This document shows, piece after piece, positions 13,601 to 37,525 of a stretch of 64,000 nt of DNA. Source of the DNA: a virus; the IMG/VR virus record IMGVR_UViG_3300045988_136447, positions 2,554 through 66,553 of that record. One strand, given 5' to 3'. A program made the position numbers and the translations under genes. A model generated the notes under the pieces. It made no database searches. It was not told where the DNA came from and saw nothing but the letters and a program-made list of their open reading frames with translations. Numbering within the stretch: the stretch's first letter is position 1; each line of letters starts with the position of its first letter.

Positions 13601-14815
13601 ATGCTCGACCTTCCGCACATTGTACCGGAGTATGAAAACTCTAATTGCTCTGCTTGCAGACTAGATTGTGGTTCACGGCTGCAATTGGCAGGACATGGCC
13701 ATAAGAAAATTCTGATTGTGTTCGATGCCCAAGACGCAATTCAGCAGACTACAAAAACGTACTTTTGCGGAAGTCGTTACACTTACGTTCGTGATCTGCT
13801 GTACAAGTACGGCATTACGACGGATGACATATGGATGACTTCCACCATTCAGTGTTATTCCGAGTACAAAGAAGAGCAACATGCCATTCACTGCAAGCCA
13901 AACCTCATCAAGACAATAAAGAGGCTTAAGCCGGTACTCGTGATCGGTTTTGGTGAATTTACAGCTAAGATGCTGCTGTCTTACATCATTGAAGACGGTA
14001 TTTTCCTTGACCGAGTTCACGGTTGGGTGCATCCTAATCGTGAACTGGGCTGTAACATGATGTTTACGTACACTCCCCATCCGGGTTCGGCAAAGTATAA
14101 GACGATCGAGGAGTTCATTATCGAGCGCGACGTACATATGGCTATTAAAAGCCTTGCCAAGCCGCCTGACACGTACACGCCGGAAAACAAGTGTGTACGC
14201 CTGCTTGAACCTAAAGAGGCCGCCATGTGGCTGCGAGACCGCATAAATGACAAAACAGAACGGTTTTCCGCTCTTGACTACGAGACTAACTGTCTGAAAC
14301 CGTATAATCCCGCTGCCAAATTGTACAGTTGTGCGGTATGCGAAGATCGCGATAACTCATATGCGTTTAAGATAGATGATACAACGTATTCTCTTATGCG
14401 TGAGTATTGGGCCACAAAGCATATCAGGAAGATAGCACACAACAGTGCGTTTGAACGCATGTGGACTATGGTTAAATTGAAAGTAATGCCAAGAAGACTG
14501 ATCGCTGATACCATGTTGCTAGCTCATGTTCTTGACAACAGAGACGTAAAGTGGCTGTCGATTAAGTTTATCGGCCCTATGCTTACCGGATGCTCCGTAT
14601 GGAATGGCCATATCGAATCTTACTTAGAGCCGAGTAAGCAGGATAAGAAGCTGTACGGAGAATATGCCTTGAACAGGGTTGCATCAATACCGATCAGGCA
14701 GCTTCTTACATACAACGCAATCGATAGTCTTGTAGAGTTTCGTACATTTTTCAAACTGTATGAAATGCTTAAAAATTTTTACGGTACTTTCCCGATTGAA
14801 AGCGAGAGCGAATAA
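13601..14815 (+). CDS. family A DNA polymerase, N-terminal 3'-5' exonuclease part (separate ORF)
   Basis: Exo motifs LDYETNCL and AHNSAFE; stop TAA overlaps the ATG of the next ORF (TAATG). Confidence 0.7.
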   Translation: MLDLPHIVPEYENSNCSACRLDCGSRLQLAGHGHKKILIVFDAQDAIQQTTKTYFCGSRYTYVRDLLYKYGITTDDIWMTSTIQCYSEYKEEQHAIHCKPNLIKTIKRLKPVLVIGFGEFTAKMLLSYIIEDGIFLDRVHGWVHPNRELGCNMMFTYTPHPGSAKYKTIEEFIIERDVHMAIKSLAKPPDTYTPENKCVRLLEPKEAAMWLRDRINDKTERFSALDYETNCLKPYNPAAKLYSCAVCEDRDNSYAFKIDDTTYSLMREYWATKHIRKIAHNSAFERMWTMVKLKVMPRRLIADTMLLAHVLDNRDVKWLSIKFIGPMLTGCSVWNGHIESYLEPSKQDKKLYGEYALNRVASIPIRQLLTYNAIDSLVEFRTFFKLYEMLKNFYGTFPIESESE

Positions 14816-16188
14816 TGATTACGCCAACTACAATGGATGCCTTTAAACTTGTGATGATGGGGGAAGAGGCACTTACTCAGGTATCCGTCAATGGATTTAA
14901 AATTGACAGGGACTACTACGAGAGACAGAAGCCCGTTATCCAAGAAGAAATCAAGCGTTTACGCACTCAGATACTCACTCAGTCGGAGATCGGAAGATGC
15001 TGGCATGAGAGGTATGGGGCTAAGACTAACATCGATTCCAACGATCAGTTGAAAGCCGTACTTGAACACGATATCCATTTCGATAAATTCAAAATCACGG
15101 ACAAGGGCGGTAAGTCGGCAGATGCTTCCGTCATCGAAAAGCTGCCCTATGAGTTCAGTAATCCATTCAGCCGATATAAGCAGTTCGGCAAAATGTGGGG
15201 AAGCCTTATCACTCCCATCATGCTTGGTGCAGACATAAATGGGTTTGTGCACCCAAATATCAATCTTCACACCGTGAGAACTTACCGATCGTCATGCGAT
15301 TCCCCTAACTTGCAGCAGGTTCCGAAGCATAACAAGTTGATTAAAGAAATCGTAAGAAACGGGTTCATACCTAGAAGTCCCAAGAGGATGCTTGCTGAAA
15401 TCGACTTGCAGTCTGCTGAGGTTAGTGTTGGCTGCTGTCTGCACCGTGATAAGCAGATGTTGCAATTCCTGCACGACAAGACGATCGACATGCATACATT
15501 CGTTGAGAAAGAGTTTTATAAGCTCAATGATGATGAATTGTGTAAGGAGTTGCGATCTTCCGTAAAGGGAAGATTTGTGTTTGCTTCATTTTACGGAGCA
15601 GGTGCATCATCGATGGCCGCCTCGCTGTGGGAGTATATAGAAGAATCGAATTTCACACTTCCGACAGGCGAAAAGCTGAAAGACCATATGGCCAAGTTAG
15701 GCGTAGTCGACTATGACACCTGTCTCCAGCATACGGAAAGGGTATTCGATTGGTATTGGAATACTCTCTTCAAGGAGTACGGTGCATGGAAAGAAGCCAT
15801 ATGGGATTTGTACAAAAAACAGGGATACTTAGACTACCCAACCGGATTCCGTGTGGTTGCCGCGATGACAAAGACACAGGCTATGAATACGATTATTCAG
15901 GGGTCTACGTTTCACCTGCTTCTACTGACGCTTATTGAGTTGCAGAAGCGAATGACTTACTATAAGTTAGAATCAAAAATAGTATGTCAGATTCATGACA
16001 GTATCGTTTTGGATTTACTCCCTTCGGAGCAACAGACTGTTTTTGATCTGTATCTTGACAGCCAGGCAGCAGTACGCAAGCGTTGGCCGTGGCTTCTGTA
16101 TCCGATTACCGCAGATGCGGATATCAGCGAAGTAGGCGGTACATGGGCTCACATGACAAGTTATGGAGAAATTACGCATGCAAGCTGA
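14815..16188 (+). CDS. family A DNA polymerase, polymerase (palm/fingers) part
   Basis: Motif A EIDLQSAEVSV, motif B RSSVKGRFVFASFYGAG, motif C QIHDSIVLD. Confidence 0.8.
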   Translation: MITPTTMDAFKLVMMGEEALTQVSVNGFKIDRDYYERQKPVIQEEIKRLRTQILTQSEIGRCWHERYGAKTNIDSNDQLKAVLEHDIHFDKFKITDKGGKSADASVIEKLPYEFSNPFSRYKQFGKMWGSLITPIMLGADINGFVHPNINLHTVRTYRSSCDSPNLQQVPKHNKLIKEIVRNGFIPRSPKRMLAEIDLQSAEVSVGCCLHRDKQMLQFLHDKTIDMHTFVEKEFYKLNDDELCKELRSSVKGRFVFASFYGAGASSMAASLWEYIEESNFTLPTGEKLKDHMAKLGVVDYDTCLQHTERVFDWYWNTLFKEYGAWKEAIWDLYKKQGYLDYPTGFRVVAAMTKTQAMNTIIQGSTFHLLLLTLIELQKRMTYYKLESKIVCQIHDSIVLDLLPSEQQTVFDLYLDSQAAVRKRWPWLLYPITADADISEVGGTWAHMTSYGEITHAS

Positions 16189-19944: not shown

Positions 19945-20241
19945 ATGTCGAGTATTTGCACAAAAGAAGACTACGTACAGTACACAGAAGAGTACGTAAA
20001 TGCGCTTGGGAAGAGCATGAAAGCAACGGCTGCGTATGAGATCGCCAAGCACAAAACACGCTTGAAACTCTATGCAAAGAAAGCAGCCGGAGAGAAGTAC
20101 ACGGAAGAGCAGATCAGAACGATGTCCATTGTGGAAAATGAGGAGCTGTACATCGAGTATATGAACGCTTCCTGTCGACTGGAAAAAGCACGTTCCGTGC
20201 TTGAATGTATGAAAAATATCTACAACAAGGAGGATAAGTGA
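19945..20241 (+). CDS. hypothetical protein
   Basis: 98 aa, AAGGAGG RBS, downstream of a sigma70-like promoter. Confidence 0.5.
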   Translation: MSSICTKEDYVQYTEEYVNALGKSMKATAAYEIAKHKTRLKLYAKKAAGEKYTEEQIRTMSIVENEELYIEYMNASCRLEKARSVLECMKNIYNKEDK

Positions 20242-21392
20242 TGGGTAACGCGCAAACTTTTCTTGAAAGGCTGAGAGCCGAACGTGAACGGCGTCTTGCA
20301 AAAAACAAAGAAGCGGTCAGCGGAGAATCTCGGGAATTTCTCCTCACCGAAAATCTTCCGGAAGGGAATAAACTGTGGTGGCCTTCCGAAGATACGGAAG
20401 TCACGATGCACATTCTCCCCTTTATGGTGGGGAAGAAAGACAACATTGCGGAAGAGGAAGTCGGGCATTTCGCTATTGTGCGGAAAGTGAAAATCCATTT
20501 CCTCCCGAATCGGGCGGTAAAGGTGTGTCCGGAAACGTATGGGCATACTTGCCCGCTGTGTGAAAAGTATCGCTCGTATGCCAAAGACGAGCGAAGCAAG
20601 AAGGGCAGCCCGGCCACGAAGTACAAAGCAAAGGAACTCGCCCTTTTCAACGCGCTTTTCAGAGTTCCGGGCAAGGACGGAAAGAATCGTCTTGAGGTTC
20701 GGGTTGTGCGCGGAGGTGCTTTCGCCGGGTGGGAAAGCATCATGAAAGAGATCAAAGGCGAAGCTGCCATTAAGGCAAATGCACCTTATGCAGACAAGAT
20801 TTACATGTTTGACGATCTTGTCGATGGGTATTGGATGAATATCCGGTGTAATAAGGCTTCCATTGCTGGCGGGAGCGGCACTGGGGATGCATCGTTCATG
20901 CAGTTTACCCGCGTGAATCTTTTGTGGAAAGAGAAGTCTTCCCCGATCCCCGAAGCCATCATTCCCCGCATTGCGGATATCGACATGCTCATCCCTCCCC
21001 CGGCTACAGCCGATGAACTTCGGTCGGCCTTTGATATGAAGGATGCCAGCGTCACGGAAGCGGAGGAAGAGGAGTTCGAAAGTCTTGAACTTTCGAACGA
21101 GACGCTTGATGAGATTGACTGCGGCCCCAAAAAGAATCCGGAGCCGGAGCCGGAAGCCGAAGAAATCGACGATCTCGAAGAGATGGAGGAAGAAGTGAAG
21201 GGAGAGGTTGAAGAGGAGCCCGAGCCCGAGCCTGAGCCGAAAAAGAAAGCAGAAGTCAAGCGCAAACCCGCCAAGAAGGTCGAGCCGGAGCCGGAACCCG
21301 AGCCGGAGCCGGAAGTCGAAGAAGCCAAATCCGAAGATTCGGAAGAATCTGATGATAGTGACCCCTTTGGCGATGACGAGTTTGATTTGTAA
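20238..21392 (+). CDS. SSB-like protein with EPEPEP repeats and acidic C-terminus (DDSDPFGDDEFDL)
   Basis: Acidic aromatic C-terminal tail as in T7 gp2.5, T4 gp32 and SSB; position in replication module. Confidence 0.45.
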   Translation: MMGNAQTFLERLRAERERRLAKNKEAVSGESREFLLTENLPEGNKLWWPSEDTEVTMHILPFMVGKKDNIAEEEVGHFAIVRKVKIHFLPNRAVKVCPETYGHTCPLCEKYRSYAKDERSKKGSPATKYKAKELALFNALFRVPGKDGKNRLEVRVVRGGAFAGWESIMKEIKGEAAIKANAPYADKIYMFDDLVDGYWMNIRCNKASIAGGSGTGDASFMQFTRVNLLWKEKSSPIPEAIIPRIADIDMLIPPPATADELRSAFDMKDASVTEAEEEEFESLELSNETLDEIDCGPKKNPEPEPEAEEIDDLEEMEEEVKGEVEEEPEPEPEPKKKAEVKRKPAKKVEPEPEPEPEPEVEEAKSEDSEESDDSDPFGDDEFDL

Positions 21393-22832: not shown

Positions 22833-23284
22833 TGGTTTTTATCGGGATTGATCCGGGAAAAACAGGAAGCATTACCGTGCTGGACGAGAAGGAAGGCACG
22901 GTAAATATCACATCAATGCCTAAAACGATTGCAGAAATGCAAGACGTGTTTGATTCTATTTGCAGTAATCGGAATATGAATGAACTCTATGCCGTACTGG
23001 AACAGGTTCATTCTATGCCGGGGCAGGGGGTTGCTTCATGCTTTACGTTCGGTAAAGCCTATGGGTGGCTTCAAGCCATGCTTGCCGCACATCATATTAA
23101 GACGATCGAGATTACCCCCCAAAAATGGATGAAACTGATCGGTGCCTTGCCGAAAGACAAGCACGCCCGTAAAGTCGCAATTCAGGATTGGGTACAAAAA
23201 CGGATCGGCAGGGCCTGCGGTCTTGGGGTTGCCGATGGGGTTGCACTTGCTATTTTATGTAAAGAGATTTGGAGGTTGAAATGA
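22832..23284 (+). CDS. RuvC-like Holliday junction resolvase
   Basis: MVFIGIDPGKTGSITVLDE matches the RuvC N-terminal IGIDPG..G motif. Confidence 0.6.
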   Translation: MVFIGIDPGKTGSITVLDEKEGTVNITSMPKTIAEMQDVFDSICSNRNMNELYAVLEQVHSMPGQGVASCFTFGKAYGWLQAMLAAHHIKTIEITPQKWMKLIGALPKDKHARKVAIQDWVQKRIGRACGLGVADGVALAILCKEIWRLK

Positions 23285-23514
23285 ACTACGTCCCTAAACT
23301 TGGAAGATACATTGCAGAGCACGATATCGACCTTCGTCACACCGCAAAGCGTTTGCATATTTCGCTGAATGCGGCGCGGCGCTATGCCTATGAAACAGGC
23401 ACAACACGGATGTTTGCTGCTATGGCTTGGGCTTATGCGCTGAATTGCACGCCTGAGGATTTGCTCGAAACAAAAGAAACTGGTGATGCGTTGCAGTGGA
23501 AAGACAAGAAATAA
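23269..23514 (+). CDS. hypothetical small protein (possible HTH)
   Basis: 81-aa ORF. Confidence 0.4.
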   Translation: MEVEMNYVPKLGRYIAEHDIDLRHTAKRLHISLNAARRYAYETGTTRMFAAMAWAYALNCTPEDLLETKETGDALQWKDKK

Positions 23515-24695
23515 AATCCATCGAGCTTGTCAACATCCAAAAGCACAAGCACATCACATTGTCGCTTTCCGGTATCAACGTATTAATCGGAGAGACGGAA
23601 AGCGGCAAAACGTCAATTTTACGCGGTATTCTGTGGAACATCCTCAACAATACGTCTGGCGAAAAGCTCCTCAATAACGATGGCGCAAAGGCCTGCTCTG
23701 TGACCATTACATGCGGTGACGATGTAGTGTCTCGGAACTGGAGTAAAACGGAAAACACTTACGCATTAAACGGCAAGAAGTTTTCCGCTATCAGAACGTC
23801 TGTTCCGGATGAAGTAAGTAAGCTGTATGCCGTCGATTCCGTAAACATACAGCGCAGACGCGACGTGCCGTTTATGGTGTACTATAAGGACACTGAGTGC
23901 GCTAAACAGTTTGGGGATATGCTGGACGTATCGGAAATCGATCAAACGATCGGGGCCAGTAATGCCCATGTACGCGAACTTAAAACGGAATGTGACGCCC
24001 TGAGCGCCGCGGTATCAAGCGGTGAAAAGGAGCTTGAAGAGCTTTCGTTTATCGATGAAGCTGCTGAATCGTTTTCTGCAATCAAAGAATTAGTAGTGTC
24101 TGCTGATTCTGAGGAAAGAAAACAGGAACGTTTTGGGGTTTTATCCGAGAAACTCACGCAAGCCGCCGAGTACACAAACAAGTACATCGCGCTTGGTGAC
24201 GCACTTAAACAGTTTACTGCGCTTGACAAGTTCAGCGAAGATATAACCTGTATTCAGGGGCAGTTGGAAACCTATATAACTTTGCATACTTCTCTAATGA
24301 GTACGAAGAAGCTGTTTGATAAGTACACTAAGTATGATGAAGCTTATCATCTATTAATGTACTTTAATAATGATGCATCTGTACTTAGGGAAATTATTGC
24401 AGGGGGCAAAGAGCTTTCTGCTCTGAAAAATGAGCTTGTATCTTTAGACTGCTCTAAATTTGAAAATTTAGACGAATCCATTAAGGAGCTGAATCAGATC
24501 ACCAACTCTGCCGAGGAGATCGGTGCTATTGAAAATAAGGTTCATTCTTTATTTTTACTTTCAACGGACTACGTACAGGCGCAGACAGACAAAACGAAAA
24601 AAGAAGATCGGTACAGTGCTCTTCAACGGAAATTCAAGTCAGAAATGCCGAAAGTATGCCCGCTGTGTAATCAACCGATAGAGGTGCATGAATGA
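23496..24695 (+). CDS. Rad50/SbcC-like ATPase, N-terminal half (Walker A plus coiled coil, ending in CPLC hook-like motif)
   Basis: INVLIGETESGKTSIL Walker A; long coiled-coil; C-terminus ...KVCPLCNQPIEVHE; GTG start. Confidence 0.6.
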   Translation: MERQEIKSIELVNIQKHKHITLSLSGINVLIGETESGKTSILRGILWNILNNTSGEKLLNNDGAKACSVTITCGDDVVSRNWSKTENTYALNGKKFSAIRTSVPDEVSKLYAVDSVNIQRRRDVPFMVYYKDTECAKQFGDMLDVSEIDQTIGASNAHVRELKTECDALSAAVSSGEKELEELSFIDEAAESFSAIKELVVSADSEERKQERFGVLSEKLTQAAEYTNKYIALGDALKQFTALDKFSEDITCIQGQLETYITLHTSLMSTKKLFDKYTKYDEAYHLLMYFNNDASVLREIIAGGKELSALKNELVSLDCSKFENLDESIKELNQITNSAEEIGAIENKVHSLFLLSTDYVQAQTDKTKKEDRYSALQRKFKSEMPKVCPLCNQPIEVHE

Positions 24696-25573
24696 AAATA
24701 CTTGCCATAGCGGATATGCACTTGACGGAGCACAGGCCGGTATGCCGCTCTGAAAATGAAAACTGGATTCAAGTAATTGATGAAAAATTCAATCAAATCA
24801 GAGACATGGCAGAAGGATTCTGCGCAGATCAAATCGTCATAGCAGGTGATGTTTTTGACGTTCCGGCAAGAAATACAAACTGGTTCATGTGTCAGTGCAT
24901 TACATGGTTTGATATGCTGAAAACCGTTTGCCCGGTGAATGCAATTCCCGGAAATCATGATTTGATTATGGGGGATCAGGACAGCATTTACAGTACAAGC
25001 TTCGGCATACTCGAACAGGCAGGATGCATCTCTATCCCTGAGAATTTAGGGATTATCCCTTACGGAGAAACTAGAATTCAAGGGGAAACTAAGGCAGTTG
25101 TTGCCCATCAGGGACTATGGCTGAAAGAAAAACCGTTTGAAGGGGCTTCTGACAGCGGAAATGTGCATACTTGGGTGAAAGAGCATTTGCCGGAAGAGTG
25201 CAGACTTCTGATTACAGGACATTTTCACGTTCCGTTCTGTTGCAAGTCTGGAAACACTGCGGTTATTAACTGCGGAAGTATGTTCCGTCTACGGGCCGAT
25301 CAGGTAGACTACCAGCCCGGAATGTGGTTGATTGACTACGATCAAAAGTCAGATTCCGTAAAAGTAAAACGAATGCCGTTTATCCTCACAAACCAAATCA
25401 GGAGAGACTACATTGAAGAAGCAGAAGAAAAAAAGAGACTTGAATCTCTGGTGGGTTCTGTTGAAGGAGACTTTGAATTGTCGCTCAATTTCAAAGATAA
25501 CTTTTACAACCTCACGTCTGAAATTGACAATCGAGAAGAAATAATCAAAGAGTTTGAAAGGTGTACTAAATGA
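24692..25573 (+). CDS. Mre11/SbcD-like nuclease (calcineurin-like phosphoesterase)
   Basis: MKILAIADMHL; IAGDVFD; IPGNHD; GHFH motifs. Confidence 0.8.
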   Translation: MKILAIADMHLTEHRPVCRSENENWIQVIDEKFNQIRDMAEGFCADQIVIAGDVFDVPARNTNWFMCQCITWFDMLKTVCPVNAIPGNHDLIMGDQDSIYSTSFGILEQAGCISIPENLGIIPYGETRIQGETKAVVAHQGLWLKEKPFEGASDSGNVHTWVKEHLPEECRLLITGHFHVPFCCKSGNTAVINCGSMFRLRADQVDYQPGMWLIDYDQKSDSVKVKRMPFILTNQIRRDYIEEAEEKKRLESLVGSVEGDFELSLNFKDNFYNLTSEIDNREEIIKEFERCTK

Positions 25574-25815
25574 ATGTAGCGGAAGAACTTTGTGATCTCA
25601 AACGTGCGTTGGAGACGGCAAAAGAGAATCGTGATCGTGCTCAAGGAAAACTTGAAGTGTTGCACAAGCAGCTTGAAGAGTATGGATTCACTTCCATTGA
25701 AGAACTTCAAAACGCCATCTCTGAGTTGAAATTGTCATACGAAAAGAAGAAAGTTGAGATTCAGGAGAAGATCAATGATTTCAAAAGAAAATATGGGGAT
25801 ATGCTCAACGATTGA
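25570..25815 (+). CDS. coiled-coil segment, probably part of SbcC C-terminal half (frame differs from next ORF)
   Basis: Heptad-rich sequence; overlaps 25754..26398 in another frame. Confidence 0.4.
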   Translation: MNVAEELCDLKRALETAKENRDRAQGKLEVLHKQLEEYGFTSIEELQNAISELKLSYEKKKVEIQEKINDFKRKYGDMLND

Positions 25816-26398
25816 GCAGTCACTACAAAATAAGATTGCATATAAAAATGTAATCATTAAACAGTTGGATGCCAAGAAAGCTCAATACGCTAAACTGAAA
25901 CATGAACTGGAAGTTGCGACAAGTACTCAAGCGCTGATTCAGGAAGCCGCACAACTTACACTATCCAGCATTTCGGTCAAGATAGATACCATCGTAACTA
26001 AGGTTATTCAGACGGTGTTTTCGAAGCCGTATAAATTCCATTTGGAGTTCAGAATCCTGTATGGGAAACTCGCTACGGATATGTATCTTGAGAGAGACGG
26101 AAAGCGCTATGATCCGAAATCAGATAACGGTGACGGCATGGTAGATATCGTAGCGCTGGCACTGAGGGTTGCAGTAATCTGCCTGGATAAGCGAAACTTG
26201 AGAAGGATTCTTATTCTTGATGAGCCTTGCGGAGCACTGTCCGTAAACTTCCAAGAGTACCTTGGAAAGATGTTGGAGTATTTTAGAGAAAAATTGAACT
26301 TTCAAATTTTTATGATTGCGGCACATGGTTCAAATTTGAATATCGAATCCGCAAAATATTTTGATGTTCAGAATTTCATTGAGAATGGAGAATACTAA
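25754..26398 (+). CDS. Rad50/SbcC-like ATPase, C-terminal half (Walker B, D-loop, H-loop)
   Basis: ILILDEPCGALSV Walker B/D-loop; FMIAAHGSN H-loop. Confidence 0.6.
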   Translation: MRFRRRSMISKENMGICSTIEQSLQNKIAYKNVIIKQLDAKKAQYAKLKHELEVATSTQALIQEAAQLTLSSISVKIDTIVTKVIQTVFSKPYKFHLEFRILYGKLATDMYLERDGKRYDPKSDNGDGMVDIVALALRVAVICLDKRNLRRILILDEPCGALSVNFQEYLGKMLEYFREKLNFQIFMIAAHGSNLNIESAKYFDVQNFIENGEY

Positions 26399-31563: not shown

Positions 31564-32013
31564 TCAAGATGCTCCATTGGCCGCCTCCTTGTACTTCCAC
31601 GCCCAGCCGCCGAATTCGCGCAGGATCGCGTGAAACTTCCGCATCTGTTTGCGAACCCAATAGCGGCGCGGATCGTACCAGCCGTAGCGGTAATTCGCCA
31701 GCTTCAGGCCGTTTTCAAGCATCTCGTCGTCAGCGTCCTTGCGTTCCGCTTCCGTACCGCCGAGCGCGCAGCGGATGTCGTGGATATCGGCGGCAAGAAC
31801 AAGGGTCGGGTTCAATCCGCTGATCACCTCCCGCAGCCATTCAGGCATCCAGTCCGCGCCGATGCCGTTGCAGACGCGACAGGCGCGTTCGCGGTCAAGC
31901 AGCAGTTCCGCGCCGGAAAGTTTCGCCGCTTTCGCAAGCGCAATTTTCTCTTCAATTTCATTCAGACTGTACATCCGTAACCTCCTGTTCCGCTTGTGTC
32001 TCTGCCAATTCAT
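31564..32013 (-). CDS. hypothetical protein (GC-rich island)
   Basis: 149-aa ORF; high local GC makes other-frame ORFs spurious. Confidence 0.4.
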   Translation of the reverse strand: MNWQRHKRNRRLRMYSLNEIEEKIALAKAAKLSGAELLLDRERACRVCNGIGADWMPEWLREVISGLNPTLVLAADIHDIRCALGGTEAERKDADDEMLENGLKLANYRYGWYDPRRYWVRKQMRKFHAILREFGGWAWKYKEAANGAS

Positions 32014-32500
32014 CCATTTTCGCCCGGACTGCTTCGATGGTCAGATCGAACGCGGCGAGCCAAACCGGAACGCGCGAATCCTTTAGGTCGATCTGCCCAC
32101 CGGGAGCGGCGTCGGAGGTCAGCAGCGCCAGTCCCGCGATGCCCTGCTTGAAGGTATCCGGGTTCTGTAGCGCCGCCGCCAGCTGATCCGCTGGAATCAG
32201 CGCATAGAGCGCGTTGATGAACGCTTCCTTATCCACCCATTCTTCCGTCGGTTCCGGCTCGGGAAGTTCGATGATCTCGCCGTCCACGATGTCCAGACGC
32301 GAAAGCGGCAGCGTGCTATCACAGCGCAGGTAGCCGTGTGCGGCGTAGTATTCCGCGCCGCGATAGGGCGGGATGGGCGACTCCTCGACGTATCCGTTGA
32401 TTTTTCGTATGTATCTCATTGGTTCCTCCAAAGTTATGCTTGTTTCGGCGTCAGCGCCGCGATTTCGGCGGCGGAAAGCGCACGGTCGAACAGCAGACAC
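31958..32500 (-). CDS. hypothetical protein, possible tail fibre assembly/chaperone by position
   Basis: Directly downstream of fibre-like gene; likely start at MRYIRK (32419). Confidence 0.35.
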   Translation of the reverse strand: MSAVRPCAFRRRNRGADAETSITLEEPMRYIRKINGYVEESPIPPYRGAEYYAAHGYLRCDSTLPLSRLDIVDGEIIELPEPEPTEEWVDKEAFINALYALIPADQLAAALQNPDTFKQGIAGLALLTSDAAPGGQIDLKDSRVPVWLAAFDLTIEAVRAKMDELAETQAEQEVTDVQSE

Positions 32501-34140
32501 GAATGAATTTTTCCGTAATAGTTACTCCACAAACCATTGCGATTATCCATCAGCGCGAATGAATCGGGACAGGCATAACCATCCATTTTCGGAATCCCGT
32601 TAACAATTTCTGATTTAAGCAGAACTCCGCAATGATAAATGGAAAGTCTGGTTTTATCATCCATCAGCTCGACAACAGCGACAACGGAGTTACGTCCGGC
32701 CAGATGGCCGGGGAGGATTGCCTCCGACAGATGTCTGGCGCCTGCAATATCTACGCTGACTTCGAGTCGATATTCAAGCGTATCTACATTGAGCTGCTTA
32801 TTGTAATTGACGGCAAGCGGAGACGGGATACTTCCTTTCGACGCCCCTTGTCCGGCAAGTTCTTGTTTACAATAATTAACGGATTCATTTTCCAAAGCCG
32901 CCGCGTCAAATTCAACGAACAATGTGTAATCTGAAATTTTTCCGCGCAAATCCAGCGCGGTATCGACCCTCGCCGGTCGCGTTTCGTCCGCCGCCTCGAA
33001 CGCCCCCCGGTTGGTGCGGACGTTCGTTTTCGTGATGAGCCGCACCCGCTCCGCTTCGGACGGATAGCTCCAGACGGTGCGGCCGGAGGTCAGGCTTTTC
33101 CAGTACGTTTCGAAGATGACGCCGTCGAAATCGGAGACCGGAGCCGTTGTTGAATAAACCGCAATTTTCTTCGTTCCAGCCGAAGAAGTTGCCACAACTT
33201 CACCGTCAAATTCGACAGTGACGAACAGGCCGACGCGCTGAATACGGATCGTGTGTTCTCCAAGCTGCCGAATGCGGTCCAGCGGAATCATAAAGGCACC
33301 CACGTCCGTCAGGCGGATGACGCTGTAATTGCCGCCCGTACCGTCACCGGCAAAAGCAATATTGATGCTGCCGTTCTGCGAATTGTGATAGAAAATCTGG
33401 CTGATCGCCGAGCCTTCCGGATAACCGTCCAGCCGGTAGCGGATGAAAAATTCACAGTCATCCTCCCCAATCGAAGGGGCGGTTGTTTCTTCATCCCGCC
33501 ACGCCTCCGGCTCCTCCGCGAAGTTGCGCGGAACGGGCGACGGCCACGGATTCGACGTGTCGTTCAGATCGGAGTATGCTGCCTGCCAGACGGCCGTTCC
33601 CGTCGAATCGTCGGTCAGGGAAACCGCGTGAAGCGTCACCGGGGCGGAGGTCGTCACCACCCGGTTGTAAGCGGACGACTCCACACGTTCGCCGCTCTGC
33701 TCGTACACCGGGCCGTCCACCGTAACCCGTAACGTGGCGCCCTCGACGGCCAGGGTGACTTCATGCCGCCCGGCCAGCGAAGACGCAAACGGAGCGTACA
33801 CGAACACCCCGCCGTTGAACGAGTAACTTCCGAATACAAACCGGCAACCGCGGGCGTCCTTGTCCAATGCAAAGGAGATTCTTCCGTTGCTCTGGTACAT
33901 GATCCAATAGCTGCCGTTTTCGAAATCGTCGGCAACCGTGAAGTCGAACGTAAAGTGATAATCGCTCGTCCAGGGGAGCGACGAATACATGGCGGCCTGT
34001 AGCGCATCCCACCGGTATCCCTCGCTGAAGTCGCGCGGCATCGCCGGGCGCAGACGGCTCCACCAGGAGCCGCCCCGGTCGGGCGTCAGGCAGAGCAGGC
34101 AGGACGGATCCTGCGCGGCGTCGGTGATCGGGTCTCTCAT
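32434..34140 (-). CDS. putative tail fibre / receptor-binding protein (GC-rich)
   Basis: 568 aa beta-rich; position in distal tail module; ATGA overlap with upstream fibre gene. Confidence 0.4.
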   Translation of the reverse strand: MRDPITDAAQDPSCLLCLTPDRGGSWWSRLRPAMPRDFSEGYRWDALQAAMYSSLPWTSDYHFTFDFTVADDFENGSYWIMYQSNGRISFALDKDARGCRFVFGSYSFNGGVFVYAPFASSLAGRHEVTLAVEGATLRVTVDGPVYEQSGERVESSAYNRVVTTSAPVTLHAVSLTDDSTGTAVWQAAYSDLNDTSNPWPSPVPRNFAEEPEAWRDEETTAPSIGEDDCEFFIRYRLDGYPEGSAISQIFYHNSQNGSINIAFAGDGTGGNYSVIRLTDVGAFMIPLDRIRQLGEHTIRIQRVGLFVTVEFDGEVVATSSAGTKKIAVYSTTAPVSDFDGVIFETYWKSLTSGRTVWSYPSEAERVRLITKTNVRTNRGAFEAADETRPARVDTALDLRGKISDYTLFVEFDAAALENESVNYCKQELAGQGASKGSIPSPLAVNYNKQLNVDTLEYRLEVSVDIAGARHLSEAILPGHLAGRNSVVAVVELMDDKTRLSIYHCGVLLKSEIVNGIPKMDGYACPDSFALMDNRNGLWSNYYGKIHSCLLFDRALSAAEIAALTPKQA

Positions 34141-35546
34141 GGCTGCACCTCCAGAATGACGCTGAGGACGACCGCCGTGACGGGAGTGTTCCCGGAATCT
34201 ACGAGGGTGTCGCGTGCGTCGTCAGTGTCGCGCCGGAGCGCAAGCGTCCCGGAGGCGACTTCGAGTGCGAATTCCGCCACGGCCGGAGCCGCTCCGACTG
34301 CAACGACGAACGAGGTGCCGGAGAGCTCGGAGCCGTTCACGACCGGCACGAGGACGATGTTTCCGGTCACGCCGGAATCGATGCTGACCGTCTCGAGCGA
34401 AACGCGCCGGAGACTCCGCACTCTCCCCCGGAAGCTCAGCTGCCGGAACGCCGTATCGAGATACCGGCAGTCGCCCCACGTCTCATCCGCCACCGCCATC
34501 TCCGTCACAGGGTCTGCGATGATCGTAGGGCCTGTCTCTCCGCGCAGCGGGATCGCCGCAGACCAGTCTGCCGATGTCGCCGAGTTCTTGACATAGAAAT
34601 TCCCCTCGTCAGTGGCGAAAAAGACGAAACCCTCTGCCTCCGCGTCATACTGCGCCCGTTCCGAAACCGGCCCCGAAGCATCAAATGCCAGTCCGTTGCC
34701 CGGATCACCCTTGATGTTGATAGGTGTAGGATTAGGCAAGTCCCCATCGTTTATCCACGAAATAACACCGTCAGAACTTACACTGGGGGTGTATATAAAT
34801 CCACGTGCGACGGCGTACCCGGAGCTCCAATCAGCCCCGATATTGGCAATTCTTTCACGGTAATAGTTATCATGATCCTCAGATTGAGAATCAAACCACG
34901 TAATACCATCTTCACTCCACTGACGCTCCAGCGGATTGCGAAAATAGGAATTGATAAATGCAATCGCTTCAGTGCCTGTAGGGGGAACCACTTGTGCAGA
35001 ACTCCAATCACGGATTGTATTTTTAGCAATAAACGGTATCCATGCAATTGTTGAAGGATTTGACAATCCTTGCATATACTGCTTGACATTGATGTATACG
35101 CCCGTATTGATGCTTACTTTGTCCGTTGTAACTTCTTTAAACTTAACGGTATCGGAATTTATCCTTATAGAAAGTTGTCCGGATGCAAAATCCGCTGTCC
35201 CACCGTCAACCCAGTCACCCTCGATATTAAACATATTGGAAGTAGGGTCTGCTTCGTCAAACGGAATGACAGACTGAAGAGATTTTGCCATCAGATAGTC
35301 GTCATCATCAAAGTTGTTATCAGCGACAAACACAAATGAAGTATCTGTGTCAAATGAAATCGGAGTGAATGTAACAGCTCCAGCTTCGTCCATCTGACGC
35401 TCACCGAACTGAATGCACAGGATTTGCCACTGGCCACGCTCAATATTGATATAGTCAGAGGATTTCGTGACAAAAGCCCCGTCTGCATACACCTGAGCGC
35501 GCGTATTTATGTCAATGTATGTAAGGGTCTTTTGCATATATGTCAC
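34137..35546 (-). CDS. putative tail fibre protein, chimeric (AT-rich 5' part, GC-rich 3' part)
   Basis: Composition switches at about 34700 within the ORF. Confidence 0.45.
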   Translation of the reverse strand: MTYMQKTLTYIDINTRAQVYADGAFVTKSSDYINIERGQWQILCIQFGERQMDEAGAVTFTPISFDTDTSFVFVADNNFDDDDYLMAKSLQSVIPFDEADPTSNMFNIEGDWVDGGTADFASGQLSIRINSDTVKFKEVTTDKVSINTGVYINVKQYMQGLSNPSTIAWIPFIAKNTIRDWSSAQVVPPTGTEAIAFINSYFRNPLERQWSEDGITWFDSQSEDHDNYYRERIANIGADWSSGYAVARGFIYTPSVSSDGVISWINDGDLPNPTPINIKGDPGNGLAFDASGPVSERAQYDAEAEGFVFFATDEGNFYVKNSATSADWSAAIPLRGETGPTIIADPVTEMAVADETWGDCRYLDTAFRQLSFRGRVRSLRRVSLETVSIDSGVTGNIVLVPVVNGSELSGTSFVVAVGAAPAVAEFALEVASGTLALRRDTDDARDTLVDSGNTPVTAVVLSVILEVQP

Positions 35547-35590
35547 CTCGTTTTAGCATAATATACTCCGATACTTTCAAATTTCAATCA

Positions 35591-37525
35591 CTAAACAAAG
35601 GATATATCTACAATATCAGAATTATAGTCTTTTCCTGTAAACGTAAGTAAACTACCAGAAGACGCACCCCCGACGCCTTCTCCTGCGATCCCGGCAGTCT
35701 CTGTCCAGTTCATCCATGTAAATGCTGCGCTGCCATCGCCTCCACGTCTTGCATACACATTTGAATTATCTATACCGTTTCTACCAATCACCCTGTAACC
35801 ATTGCCACCGCCCCCACCAGACGGATAGCCGCAAGTTATAGTTCCCGGTTTTTGCAATCTGACACGTAACCCAAATTGATGTTCCGGGCTGATAGCTGTT
35901 GCATAACCCCTGACGGTAGTCATAGTGAACCACCAACGACTGGAGTATATAGACCCACCCACAGACCAGTTATAGCCGTAAACTTCTCCTTGTGAAATAA
36001 GAGTTTCCAGATTTTCACCATCTGGAAGTTGTGCAATACCTCCCTGTGTTATCTGCACAGTAGTGTCACTTGCGTTCTTTATTTTTAAATCAAATACAGG
36101 AGGATCAAGCTCAAAGTTGTTGAATCCATTTTTGTATGGGCCGTATGTACATGTATTGTGCATAGTGATACTATTATTATAAGACTGACCTATACTTGTG
36201 GTCATGCTAGCAAGCCTAACCAAATTTCCTGTTCCATTATGTATAACATTTAAGTTTATGTTACTATTTTTAACATAAACTGCCTCAAACCACAGTGAAC
36301 TATCGACAGTGCCACCCTCCCTGTCGTGATTGCGCGTACCATACTCATTAGATGAGGTATACTTACCTCCCTTTCCGGCTCTTACATTGCTTAAGTCTAA
36401 GTTTAGATTAAATGTACAGGCGTTTACGTAATTTCCGAAGTCCAAAGACAACCCAAGACCATAGACGCCACCGCCATTTCCACACCCTCCATCAGAGTAA
36501 GAAGAGGAAGCTAAACCGTTACCGCCATCACCTCCCCTGCAAGATGGGGCATACGTTACGTCAATTACACATCCATACATCTTTTGGGGGGAAAGATGGA
36601 TAGCTTCTGAACCACCAGTAATACCACCCGATGAGTAGCCGCCATCAACCCCGTCTCCACCACTTCCGGGGTTTCCATAATGCAAATCGAAGGTACAGGA
36701 ATCGTATGCATCAGCACGTAGCCGTATTATACCCGCATCCCCTCCAGCACCACCATTAACCCCGCTTGCTCCGGATGCACCGTTTCCTCCGTTTCCAGTA
36801 GTGATGTCAAGATGGCACTTATACAGATAATTATAACGGCCTGAAAAAAGAGTGAGCCACGGGGTATCACCTTCAACTATATCAGAACCGCTCTTGTAAA
36901 TAGTTTTGTGTTTTGGAGCTGTACCCTCTTCACCACTCTCTGTACCATCTGTTCCGTTATGTTGTACCACCGTAAATGTGCATGTATGAAATACAACCCC
37001 TCCCAAGCAAATACAGGCAGCAGTCAGATTTGAGCGGTCGTAGATCAAAGGCACGGCTTCGCTGGTTTCATACCGGAATGTACAGTTATGGATAACCAAG
37101 TAGTTATAAAAATCAGCTACCGCATTATCTAACTGATTATACACCATGTAGTCAACTACACCACGCACCAGTACATGAACCACTTGCCGCTGTGACACGG
37201 TTGTGTAATGGATTAAGGGATCATGCAACATATCATTCAACGAGGCGTAAGCTGTTTCCCACGACAAGCCATTTCCGCTGACAGCCTTTGAATGGTCTAC
37301 GTATACGGTGTTTCCGATACAGTTAATAGTTGGTATCTCATTGGTACTAAGGCTAAAGTACGCAGGTACTCCACGGCTGTACCCTATGGCCTTTGTCATT
37401 CTAGGGTATCCGACAACAACCCCCTTATTATATGTTCCCGGATTGTAGATCGACCCTCTACGGGTTAAGGCCCCGGCAGGGCCATTAACAGCTAGCGATC
37501 CACGTTTTGTCATGTTTGCAAACAT
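35591..37525 (-). CDS. Gly-rich putative tail fibre / baseplate protein
   Basis: GNGGNGASGASGVNGGAGGDAG... repeats. Confidence 0.45.
   Translation of the reverse strand: MFANMTKRGSLAVNGPAGALTRRGSIYNPGTYNKGVVVGYPRMTKAIGYSRGVPAYFSLSTNEIPTINCIGNTVYVDHSKAVSGNGLSWETAYASLNDMLHDPLIHYTTVSQRQVVHVLVRGVVDYMVYNQLDNAVADFYNYLVIHNCTFRYETSEAVPLIYDRSNLTAACICLGGVVFHTCTFTVVQHNGTDGTESGEEGTAPKHKTIYKSGSDIVEGDTPWLTLFSGRYNYLYKCHLDITTGNGGNGASGASGVNGGAGGDAGIIRLRADAYDSCTFDLHYGNPGSGGDGVDGGYSSGGITGGSEAIHLSPQKMYGCVIDVTYAPSCRGGDGGNGLASSSYSDGGCGNGGGVYGLGLSLDFGNYVNACTFNLNLDLSNVRAGKGGKYTSSNEYGTRNHDREGGTVDSSLWFEAVYVKNSNINLNVIHNGTGNLVRLASMTTSIGQSYNNSITMHNTCTYGPYKNGFNNFELDPPVFDLKIKNASDTTVQITQGGIAQLPDGENLETLISQGEVYGYNWSVGGSIYSSRWWFTMTTVRGYATAISPEHQFGLRVRLQKPGTITCGYPSGGGGGNGYRVIGRNGIDNSNVYARRGGDGSAAFTWMNWTETAGIAGEGVGGASSGSLLTFTGKDYNSDIVDISFV

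Follow-up and report, generated by a model that had tools for sequence, protein, structure and literature searches.

The stretch of viral DNA considered here, the window, comprises 64,000 nucleotides (nt) of the IMG/VR virus record IMGVR_UViG_3300045988_136447 (positions 2,554 to 66,553), and all coordinates below are counted from its first letter. On its + strand, at 23496-26398, lie four consecutive and translationally coupled open reading frames (ORFs), at the positions at which an earlier note, made from the letters alone, had placed them. They encode the N-terminal half of a split Rad50/SbcC (the N-half), a Mre11/SbcD-type nuclease, a small helix-loop-helix protein of 81 amino acids (aa), and the C-terminal half of Rad50/SbcC (the C-half). 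Rad50, SbcC, and SMC proteins are normally single chains in which a long antiparallel coiled coil, turning back at a hook or hinge, joins the two ATPase lobes. We read this phage operon as encoding a machine of the Mre11-Rad50 type for the processing of DNA ends, with a Rad50 subunit composed of several polypeptides, and put the probability of this reading at roughly 0.7.

The features of the locus are collected in Table 1. The N-half and nuclease genes, and likewise the nuclease and small genes, share ATGA stop/start overlaps (24692-24695 and 25570-25573, respectively), and the small gene and the C-half overlap by 41 nt in different frames. An AGGAGA Shine-Dalgarno sequence stands 6 nt upstream of the ATG at 25775, and public gene calls begin the C-half at this ATG and yield an identical 207-aa protein (P0001); it is most likely the start of the C-half.

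Table 1. Genes and motifs of the split Rad50/SbcC locus (positions in the window)
Feature	Position	Strand	Remarks
Helix-turn-helix (HTH)-like ORF	23269..23514	+	81 aa; overlaps N-half start; membership in the system uncertain
N-half of split Rad50/SbcC	23496..24695	+	399 aa; GTG start
N-half, Walker A GETESGKTS	23589-23615	+	aa 32-40
N-half, Q-loop-like NIQ	23844-23858	+	
N-half, CPLC	24657-24668	+	aa 388-391; eight residues before the C-terminus
Mre11/SbcD-type nuclease	24692..25573	+	293 aa
Nuclease, phosphoesterase motif I, DMH	24710-21	+	
Nuclease, phosphoesterase motif II, GDVFD	24845-59	+	
Nuclease, phosphoesterase motif III, GNHD	24950-61	+	
Nuclease, phosphoesterase motif IV, VAHQG	25100-14	+	
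Nuclease, phosphoesterase motif V, GHFH	25217-28	+	
Small helix-loop-helix protein	25570..25815	+	81 aa
C-half of split Rad50/SbcC	25775..26398	+	207 aa; mechanical ORF begins at TTG 25754
C-half, signature-like DNGDG	26123-26137	+	
C-half, Walker B ILILDEP	26207-26227	+	
C-half, D-loop CGALS	26228-26242	+	
C-half, H-loop AAHG	26318-26329	+	

Matches of the ORFs in Pfam and PHROGs lie far beyond chance. For the N-half they include Pfam AAA_23 (5e-7), phrog_77 'SbcC-like' (3e-11), and phrog_16465 'exonuclease' (2.5e-19, protein 5-372 to profile 4-387 of 491). A profile of 17 N-half family members matches Rad50 of M. jannaschii (3aux) at 3e-17 over the whole N-lobe (profile positions 2-204), a bacterial member aligns to positions 3-394 of the archaeal Rad50 model PRK01156 (895 positions; 8e-13), and the best PDB match returned by Foldseek for the AlphaFold2 (AF2) model is the Rad50 N-domain 1f2u. 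Walker A is invariant in all 17 aligned N-halves (349-480 aa) and in further N-halves taken from individual loci (300-537 aa), and structure prediction places long helices between about aa 145 and aa 383, a rod of ~235 aa. A search of BFVD also returned short N-half-like proteins (306-370 aa) from other uncultured phages and one giant virus, for example V9SFP0 of Tunisvirus (370 aa), A0A516LLJ5 (338 aa), and A0A6J5MNC5 (317 aa), under names that include 'GajA/Old/RecF-like AAA' and 'SMC protein'; the root-mean-square deviations of these matches are very high and uninformative on rod topology. Clades other than those examined here may share the split architecture.

The C-half matches phrog_15167 'ATPase' at 6.3e-25 (protein 20-198 to profile 14-192 of 211), its profile aligns over the full length with the Rad50 C-lobe 3qkr_B (3.5e-3), and a bacterial member covers positions 687-892 of the 895 in PRK01156 (9e-14); no Pfam family scores above cut-off for the C-half of the window. 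Its AF2 model (predicted local distance difference test, pLDDT, 85; predicted template modelling score, pTM, 0.67) consists of a 78-residue N-terminal helix and then an alpha/beta lobe, and the best PDB matches found for it by Foldseek are C-terminal half-chains of SMC and Rad50 heads that had been crystallised from two-chain constructs (6qpw_E, 5h66_B, 9a9j_B, 1f2t_B, and 1ii8_B). Among C-halves the Walker B (DE) and the H-loop His are invariant, and a signature-like motif with two invariant Gly is conserved: DNGDG is nearly invariant in the clade of the window, RGGG occurs in bacterial and Bacillus-phage members, and SGGG or AGGG in more distant ones.

Because the N-half contains no signature, Walker B, or H-loop and the C-half contains no Walker A, each is half an ABC ATPase, and neither alone can bind and hydrolyse ATP. 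This division of motifs also bears on the idea that the first ORF is an unrelated SMC-, OLD-, or Septu-like ATPase, for instance one with a defence or anti-defence role, which merely lies near a nuclease and an unrelated ABC-like protein. Such an origin would fit the generic Pfam matches (AAA_23 and AAA_15), the weak NCBIfam matches to PtuA and MADS3, and the presence of RecF, RecN, SMC, and retron ATPases among the Foldseek matches. We nevertheless hold it to be very improbable, given that the N-half is not a complete ATPase, that the C-half has no Walker A and the two halves always co-occur, that Rad50 gives the best matches by profile and by fold, that the terminal CPLCG equals the SbcC hook, and that the neighbours are replication and recombination genes and not those of a defence island (no search of PADLOC was made). 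The earlier note had described the first ORF as a Rad50 N-lobe with Walker A, and had named an unrelated SMC-like ATPase fragment as the outcome of a structure-based search that would speak against it; with 3aux and 1f2u as best matches, its description stands.

The second ORF, which had likewise been taken for a Mre11/SbcD phosphoesterase, is indeed a complete phosphoesterase of this type. In addition to motifs I-V, it scores 39.5 bits against Pfam Metallophos (cut-off 21.5) and 45.7 bits (9e-12) against Metallophos_2 (cut-off 27), it matches phrog_100 'SbcD-like' at 1.4e-12, and its family profile matches E. coli SbcD at 3.6e-17. It is ~100 aa shorter than E. coli SbcD (400 aa). Its C-terminal ~55 aa are helical-looking with a central break, a pattern that is conserved across clades, and this tail may be a helix-loop-helix Rad50-binding domain.

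Conservation and gene order of the split genes

The gene boundaries are the same in >25 independent contigs, down to ~25-30% identity, and contigs with diverged members (25-60% identity) retain them. Identical boundaries are found in nine near-identical IMG/VR contigs of 21-70 kb and in many assemblies of different samples from Logan, ENA, JGI, and NCBI. In a collection of 5.8 billion proteins, nearly all homologues of the C-half measure 192-216 aa, apart from two shorter fragments, with identities down to 31%, and homologues of the N-half measure 349-480 aa. An exhaustive profile search of 1.84 billion representatives returned 4,058 relatives of the C-half at E<=1e-3, of which 2,812 still score E<=1e-10 and 405 E<=1e-30, and the best 150 are nearly all 190-230 aa long. 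Among close relatives, the ratio of nonsynonymous to synonymous substitution rates (dN/dS) is 0.10-0.29 in the N-half, 0.10-0.23 in the small gene, and 0.03-0.11 in the C-half; the nuclease, for which two comparisons were informative, has 0.06-0.10. Purifying selection acts on all four genes.

These observations leave an artefact or decay extremely improbable as the origin of the split. In isolation, the different frames and 41-nt overlap of the small ORF and the C-half do resemble a frameshift, as would be expected if one sbcC had been broken by an assembly or sequencing error or by recent pseudogenisation and the nuclease had been mis-joined. However, the boundaries are the same in the nine IMG/VR contigs and in many other assemblies, the lengths are uniform (~190-220 aa for the C-half, 349-480 aa for the N-half), clean intergenic spacers separate the pieces in the bacterial relatives, every piece has a dN/dS well below 1, and the C-half exists as a stand-alone family of 2,812 clusters at E<=1e-10. 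The disruption of a single sbcC by faulty assembly, against which the earlier note had advised resequencing, is thus not what is seen, since the arrangement recurs in many independent assemblies. A programmed frameshift from the small ORF into the C-half was also considered and rejected, as the overlap varies from 4 to 41 nt in phages and is replaced by a 10-13-nt spacer in bacteria; the Shine-Dalgarno sequence before ATG 25775 further counters it. Short spacers flank the small gene in bacteria, so it cannot be a frameshifted fragment of the N-half or of the C-half. The earlier note had distributed the C-terminal motifs over two ORFs: the one beginning at 25754 does carry Walker B, D-loop, and H-loop, whereas 25570..25815 is a separate conserved gene. 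The two-polypeptide Rad50 that it proposed is accordingly replaced by three non-nuclease polypeptides.

The N-half, the nuclease, a gene for ~80 aa, and the C-half stand together in nearly every full-length locus inspected, a survey that covered phage clades (loci L011-L020 and L036-L042), Bacillus phages, and recA-linked bacterial loci; no nuclease is annotated in the stretch read of vB_BboS-125. The N- and C-halves always co-occur. In the window-like phage clade (the window, L011, L013, L015, L017, L019, L020, L036-L039, L041, and L042) the order is N-half, nuclease, small gene, C-half, sometimes with extra small genes inserted. Bacterial loci from Thermoanaerobacterales, Tepidanaerobacteraceae, Tissierellaceae, Syntrophomonadaceae, and one Logan assembly have the order nuclease, N-half, small gene, C-half, and in four of the bacterial loci (L016, L021, L022, and L023; Clostridia) the block is flanked by recA(-recX) and rny-ymdB, a conserved core chromosomal position, on contigs as long as 482 kb. 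In L024 and L026, two related contigs binned as Methylocystaceae, the genes of a two-component system (a response regulator and a histidine kinase) separate the small gene from the C-half; in phBC6A51 the nuclease lies downstream of the C-half, and in 0305phi8-36 it is fused to the N-half (gp8). The placement of the nuclease gene between the two halves, which the earlier note had described, therefore holds for the window and the phage clade and not for bacteria, phBC6A51, or 0305phi8-36. It is a feature of the phage clade and not the cause of the split, and the order N-half, small gene, C-half is the constant element.

Arm, terminal hook motif, and small protein

The rod of the N-half (23940-24650 in the window) has a self-similarity periodicity of 47 residues across the family, seen also in L002, L016, L017, L021, L023, and L026. 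In a shuffle-controlled self-similarity periodogram over 16 proteins, offset 47 has a mean z of 4.4, with 2.9 for the window and 6.5 as the highest value, and offset 94 has a mean z of 3.4; the two arms of E. coli SbcC are not periodic in this way (z = -0.1 and -0.9). The rods tend to measure about 3-7 times 47 aa, from ~140 aa (L042) through ~185 aa and ~235 aa (window) up to ~355 aa, if an N-lobe longer by ~23 aa, by our own estimate, is allowed for in the bacterial clade. In BC1852 of phBC6A51 each rod unit ends in 'ERLxVP'; a repeat hidden Markov model (HMM) seeded on these units was dominated by BC1852 and did not generalise to the family.

The C-terminus of all N-halves, the 17 aligned and those from further loci, carries an invariant C-P-x-C at 7-25 residues from the end. 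The hook-like character that the earlier note had given to the terminal CPLC of the first ORF is borne out in sequence: the consensus, (V)CPLCG, and the E. coli SbcC hook QPCPLCGST share one core (CPLCG at SbcC 506-510), the N-half profile aligns to SbcC 163-512 so that the alignment ends on the hook, and the chain breaks just past this CPLCG. The tail of the window N-half reads CPLCNQPIEVHE. Many tails of the phage clade contain a third Cys and/or a His 3-10 residues past CPLCG (for example CPLCGNSCEEHK, CPLCGKERCND, and CPLCGSEGCKHQ), whereas bacterial tails are 20-25 aa long and Cys-free; with this third Cys/His, a single chain may have a full zinc site of its own in some of the clades. By the likeness to the SbcC hook, the terminal CPLC would bind zinc and mediate dimerisation.

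A small gene of 77-92 aa is present in every locus inspected (for example BC1854 of phBC6A51, gp34 of vB_BboS-125, and gp7 of 0305phi8-36). It stands directly upstream of the C-half except in 0305phi8-36 and in L024 and L026, where other genes come in between; in L024 and L026 it directly follows the N-half. The family pattern is a helix of ~35-45 aa, a loop (G-F/V-x-S/P..E-L), and a helix of ~25-35 aa, and in the window the loop reads GFTSIEEL (25684-25707). That the small ORF is a detached Rad50-binding domain of Mre11 is unlikely, as the nuclease retains a helix-loop-helix-like tail of its own. Longer matches (P0135, P0104, P0185, and P0181) were considered as Rosetta-stone fusions to the small protein and discarded; the additional parts are a membrane-protein N-terminal extension or low-complexity C-terminal tails.

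The proposed mechanism starts from the fact that Rad50 catalytic domains have been crystallised from co-expressed N- and C-terminal segments, which form an active head (PDB 1F2T and 1II8, chains A and B). By analogy with these structures, the N-half and the C-half would assemble non-covalently into one ABC head, the base of the arm would arise from pairing between the first ~50 residues of the N-half rod and the N-terminal helix of the C-half (aa 4 to ~55), the nuclease would dock there through its helix-loop-helix tail, and two heads would dimerise around ATP above a nuclease dimer. The machine would likely act as T4 gp46/gp47 do, processing DNA ends and hairpins for recombination-dependent replication and repair.

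Beyond the base, the return path of the arm would be built from detachable pieces. We give about even odds to a model in which the 81-aa protein is the next 'descending' stretch, repeats beyond about the third fold back or pair between complexes, and the CPLC motifs of two N-halves share a zinc ion; the extra repeats would then fold back at the distal end, and the CxxC of long members would come to lie partway along the arm. Of all steps in the mechanism, the part played by the small protein is the least secure. Three observations favour it as a piece of the returning strand. The order N-half, small gene, C-half is colinear with a full-length Rad50 cut twice in its descending arm. In the minimal member, L042, the rod of ~140 aa is matched by the small protein (84 aa) and the C-half helix (~50 aa), together ~134 aa. 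Finally, the N-half as modelled by AF2 is interrupted at 316-325, and the helix that returns from there (326-383) leaves ~110 outgoing residues uncovered.

The same split head could also carry a self-sufficient rod, either folded back on itself or stapled by CxxC and zinc into a homodimer, with the ~80-aa protein serving as an adaptor or regulator, such as a latch that bridges the heads or links nuclease to head, in the manner of a mini-kleisin or of an Nbs1/Sae2-type cofactor. A rod that ranges over ~140-355 aa in steps of ~47 aa next to a small protein (77-89 aa) and a C-half (199-221 aa) of constant size fits an adaptor as well as it fits a returning strand. The conserved internal loop (G-F/V-x-S/P..EL) suggests a hairpin and not one continuous helix, the third Cys/His in several phage-clade tails could complete a one-chain zinc site, and no fusion of the small protein to either half occurs among ~90 N-half/C-half homologues or the top 150 representatives. 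On the other side, the colinear gene order is kept in nearly every clade, even if extra genes are sometimes interposed (L024/L026 and 0305phi8-36), the lengths in the minimal member fit canonical pairing, and the weak HMM matches of the small protein fall mostly in descending-arm regions of Rad50, SMC, and RecN models, although coiled-coil matches are promiscuous. Overall, we consider an adaptor rather unlikely.

Several points weigh against the reading of the operon as a Mre11-Rad50-type machine with a three-piece Rad50. No specific relative of the small protein was found in PDB, Pfam, PHROGs, or NCBIfam, where generic coiled-coil matches alone were returned, and its best alignment to E. coli SbcC (529-592, just past the hook) is statistically weak. 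Rod length varies ~2.5-fold, whereas the lengths of the small protein and the C-half are constant; because the rod spans ~140-355 aa, simple one-to-one pairing of ascending and descending strands is excluded except in the shortest members, and the reconstitution through hook and coiled-coil pairing that the earlier note had proposed is thus a conjecture which, in that simple form, could hold for these alone. The 47-aa repeat array differs from the coiled coil of E. coli SbcC, and a classical antiparallel coiled coil may be absent. The N-half model is of moderate confidence (pLDDT 70.6, pTM 0.32), and the fold-back may be an artefact of modelling a single chain. Pfam Rad50_zn_hook is matched weakly and below threshold in three of 17 members (best E 0.066); the best match to it, by the 537-aa N-half of L026 at 1e-4, is still sub-threshold. 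Lastly, the signature in the clade of the window is NGDG and not SGG, and a serine change at this position reportedly impairs ATP-dependent dimerisation of P. furiosus Rad50 (title of PDB entry 1US8); the NGDG may tune ATP-dependent engagement of the heads.

A bolder version of the three-piece Rad50 is a natural 'open-ring' form, in which the return strand consists of detachable subunits and the hook sits at the chain terminus of a modular rod, the whole representing an ancient and widespread lineage. We regard this as possible, though somewhat doubtful. If it were true, the non-covalent arm would contain gates, possibly for DNA entry and exit or for switching the nuclease on.

Genomic setting

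Upstream of the operon, on the + strand, lie genes for helicases, a sliding clamp, a DNA polymerase (in two ORFs), a clamp loader, an ATP-dependent ligase, a 5'-3' exonuclease, and a Holliday-junction resolvase, and a methyltransferase gene is also among the + strand neighbours; the - strand past 26.4 kb carries those for terminase, portal, major head protein, and tape measure. Because of this gene content on both strands, the window is taken to be a tailed-phage genome of ~60-70 kb in which the four genes close the replication/recombination module. No similarity to deposited phages at the DNA level was found for the region, except a 40-bp low-complexity match to Gordonia phages.

Weakly similar ORFs (25-35% identity) occupy the position of the HTH-like ORF in L013, L015, and L017, and this ORF may encode a regulator or an additional component of the module. 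The two polymerase ORFs (13601-14815 and 14815-16188, +) abut at a shared base and match consecutive parts of phrog_17 (positions 479-831 and 845-1236), and by these matches the polymerase appears to be a second split enzyme in the same phage. A 384-aa protein (20238-21392, +) combines a Cys/His cluster, CPETYGHTCPLC, with a long acidic Glu/Pro-rich tail (EPEPEPEP...) and has no PHROG match; the DNA of its Glu/Pro repeat is the source of the only blastn matches of the region, those of low complexity to Gordonia phages. From its position and by comparison with the zinc motif of T4 gp32, we take this protein to be a candidate gp32-like single-stranded-DNA-binding protein. The GC content is 0.52-0.56 at 32000-36000 compared with ~0.43 elsewhere in the window, and the two large - strand ORFs of this stretch (32434-34140 and 34137-35546), which have no PHROG match, may be recently acquired tail-fibre or receptor-binding genes.

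Comparison with known Mre11-Rad50 systems

By function and homology, this is a Mre11-Rad50/SbcCD system. It shares with E. coli SbcCD (SbcC, 1048 aa; SbcD, 400 aa) and with archaeal and eukaryotic Mre11-Rad50 the bipartite ABC head, with Walker A N-terminal and the remaining motifs C-terminal, the helical arm, the CPLCG hook motif (identical to that of E. coli SbcC), an adjoining phosphoesterase with motifs I-V, and a recombination and repair context. Unlike in those systems, one cut in the chain directly follows the hook motif, which is thereby terminal, and a second precedes the base of the returning arm; a variable number of 47-aa repeats makes up the arm, the nuclease is short, and, in the phage clade of the window, the signature is NGDG and the nuclease gene lies between the halves. 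To our knowledge, all characterised systems have a single-chain Rad50; in the window, as in all relatives inspected, three separate genes encode it, and no fusions occur among ~90 homologues or the top 150 representatives. No piece attains the cut-off of an NCBIfam Rad50/SbcC equivalog, and only the generic Pfam AAA_23 passes, for the N-half.

T4 gp47/gp46 and T5 D12/D13 are likewise pairs of a phage nuclease and an ATPase encoded among replication and recombination genes, with a presumed role in end processing. T4 gp46 and T5 D13 are single-chain Rad50 homologues, and we know of no conserved third subunit of ~80 aa in either system. The engineered split heads of Rad50 and SMC proteins (1F2T, 1II8, 3QKR, 5H66, and 6QPW; chains A and B) resemble the present case in that separate N- and C-terminal polypeptides form a functional head. 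However, they are laboratory truncations without most of the arm and the hook, whereas the split described here is natural and conserved and includes a long arm and a hook motif.

The closest published case is gp8 of Bacillus phage 0305phi8-36, described as a Mre11/Rad50 fusion with a missing ATPase segment (Yoshida, Claverie and Ogata 2011, PMC3175470). The N-half of the window aligns to gp8 over 98% of its length, although, unlike in the window, the nuclease is fused to the N-half. In this phage (L001, record 146905-150941) the missing C-lobe is gp5, a member of the C-half family encoded three genes downstream of gp8, and gp7 is the small protein. Separate encoding of the missing segment as gp5 was not reported (PMC3175470), so that the published description of gp8 is completed by gp5 and gp7.

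The pieces are at present labelled 'exonuclease' and 'ATPase' in PHROGs, 'Exonuclease SbcC' and 'Chromosome segregation ATPases' in GenBank, and also 'hypothetical', and PHROGs holds no link between the phrog_15167 and phrog_16465 families. No description of a natural split Rad50/SbcC was found in the full-text literature, a coverage that leaves out most subscription journals and so gives no proof of novelty. The point of interest is the three-piece Rad50 with its 47-aa repeat arm at the level of the family, of which the window copy is an ordinary member and which is large and uncharacterised. Carrier genomes such as that of 0305phi8-36 (PMC3175470), in which Rad50 now looks truncated or absent, stand to gain in annotation, and the position next to recA in several families of Clostridia suggests a bona fide cellular repair system and not only a phage one.

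It should finally be noted that the field asks how ATP-driven head movements travel along the arm and where DNA enters and leaves the ring, questions usually approached with engineered cuts and crosslinks. Compared with the single-chain Rad50 and SbcC, a natural split with separate return-strand subunits would be a ready-made separation-of-function version in which each interface could be deleted, fused, or crosslinked singly, and the variable number of 47-residue repeats provides a natural series of arm lengths.

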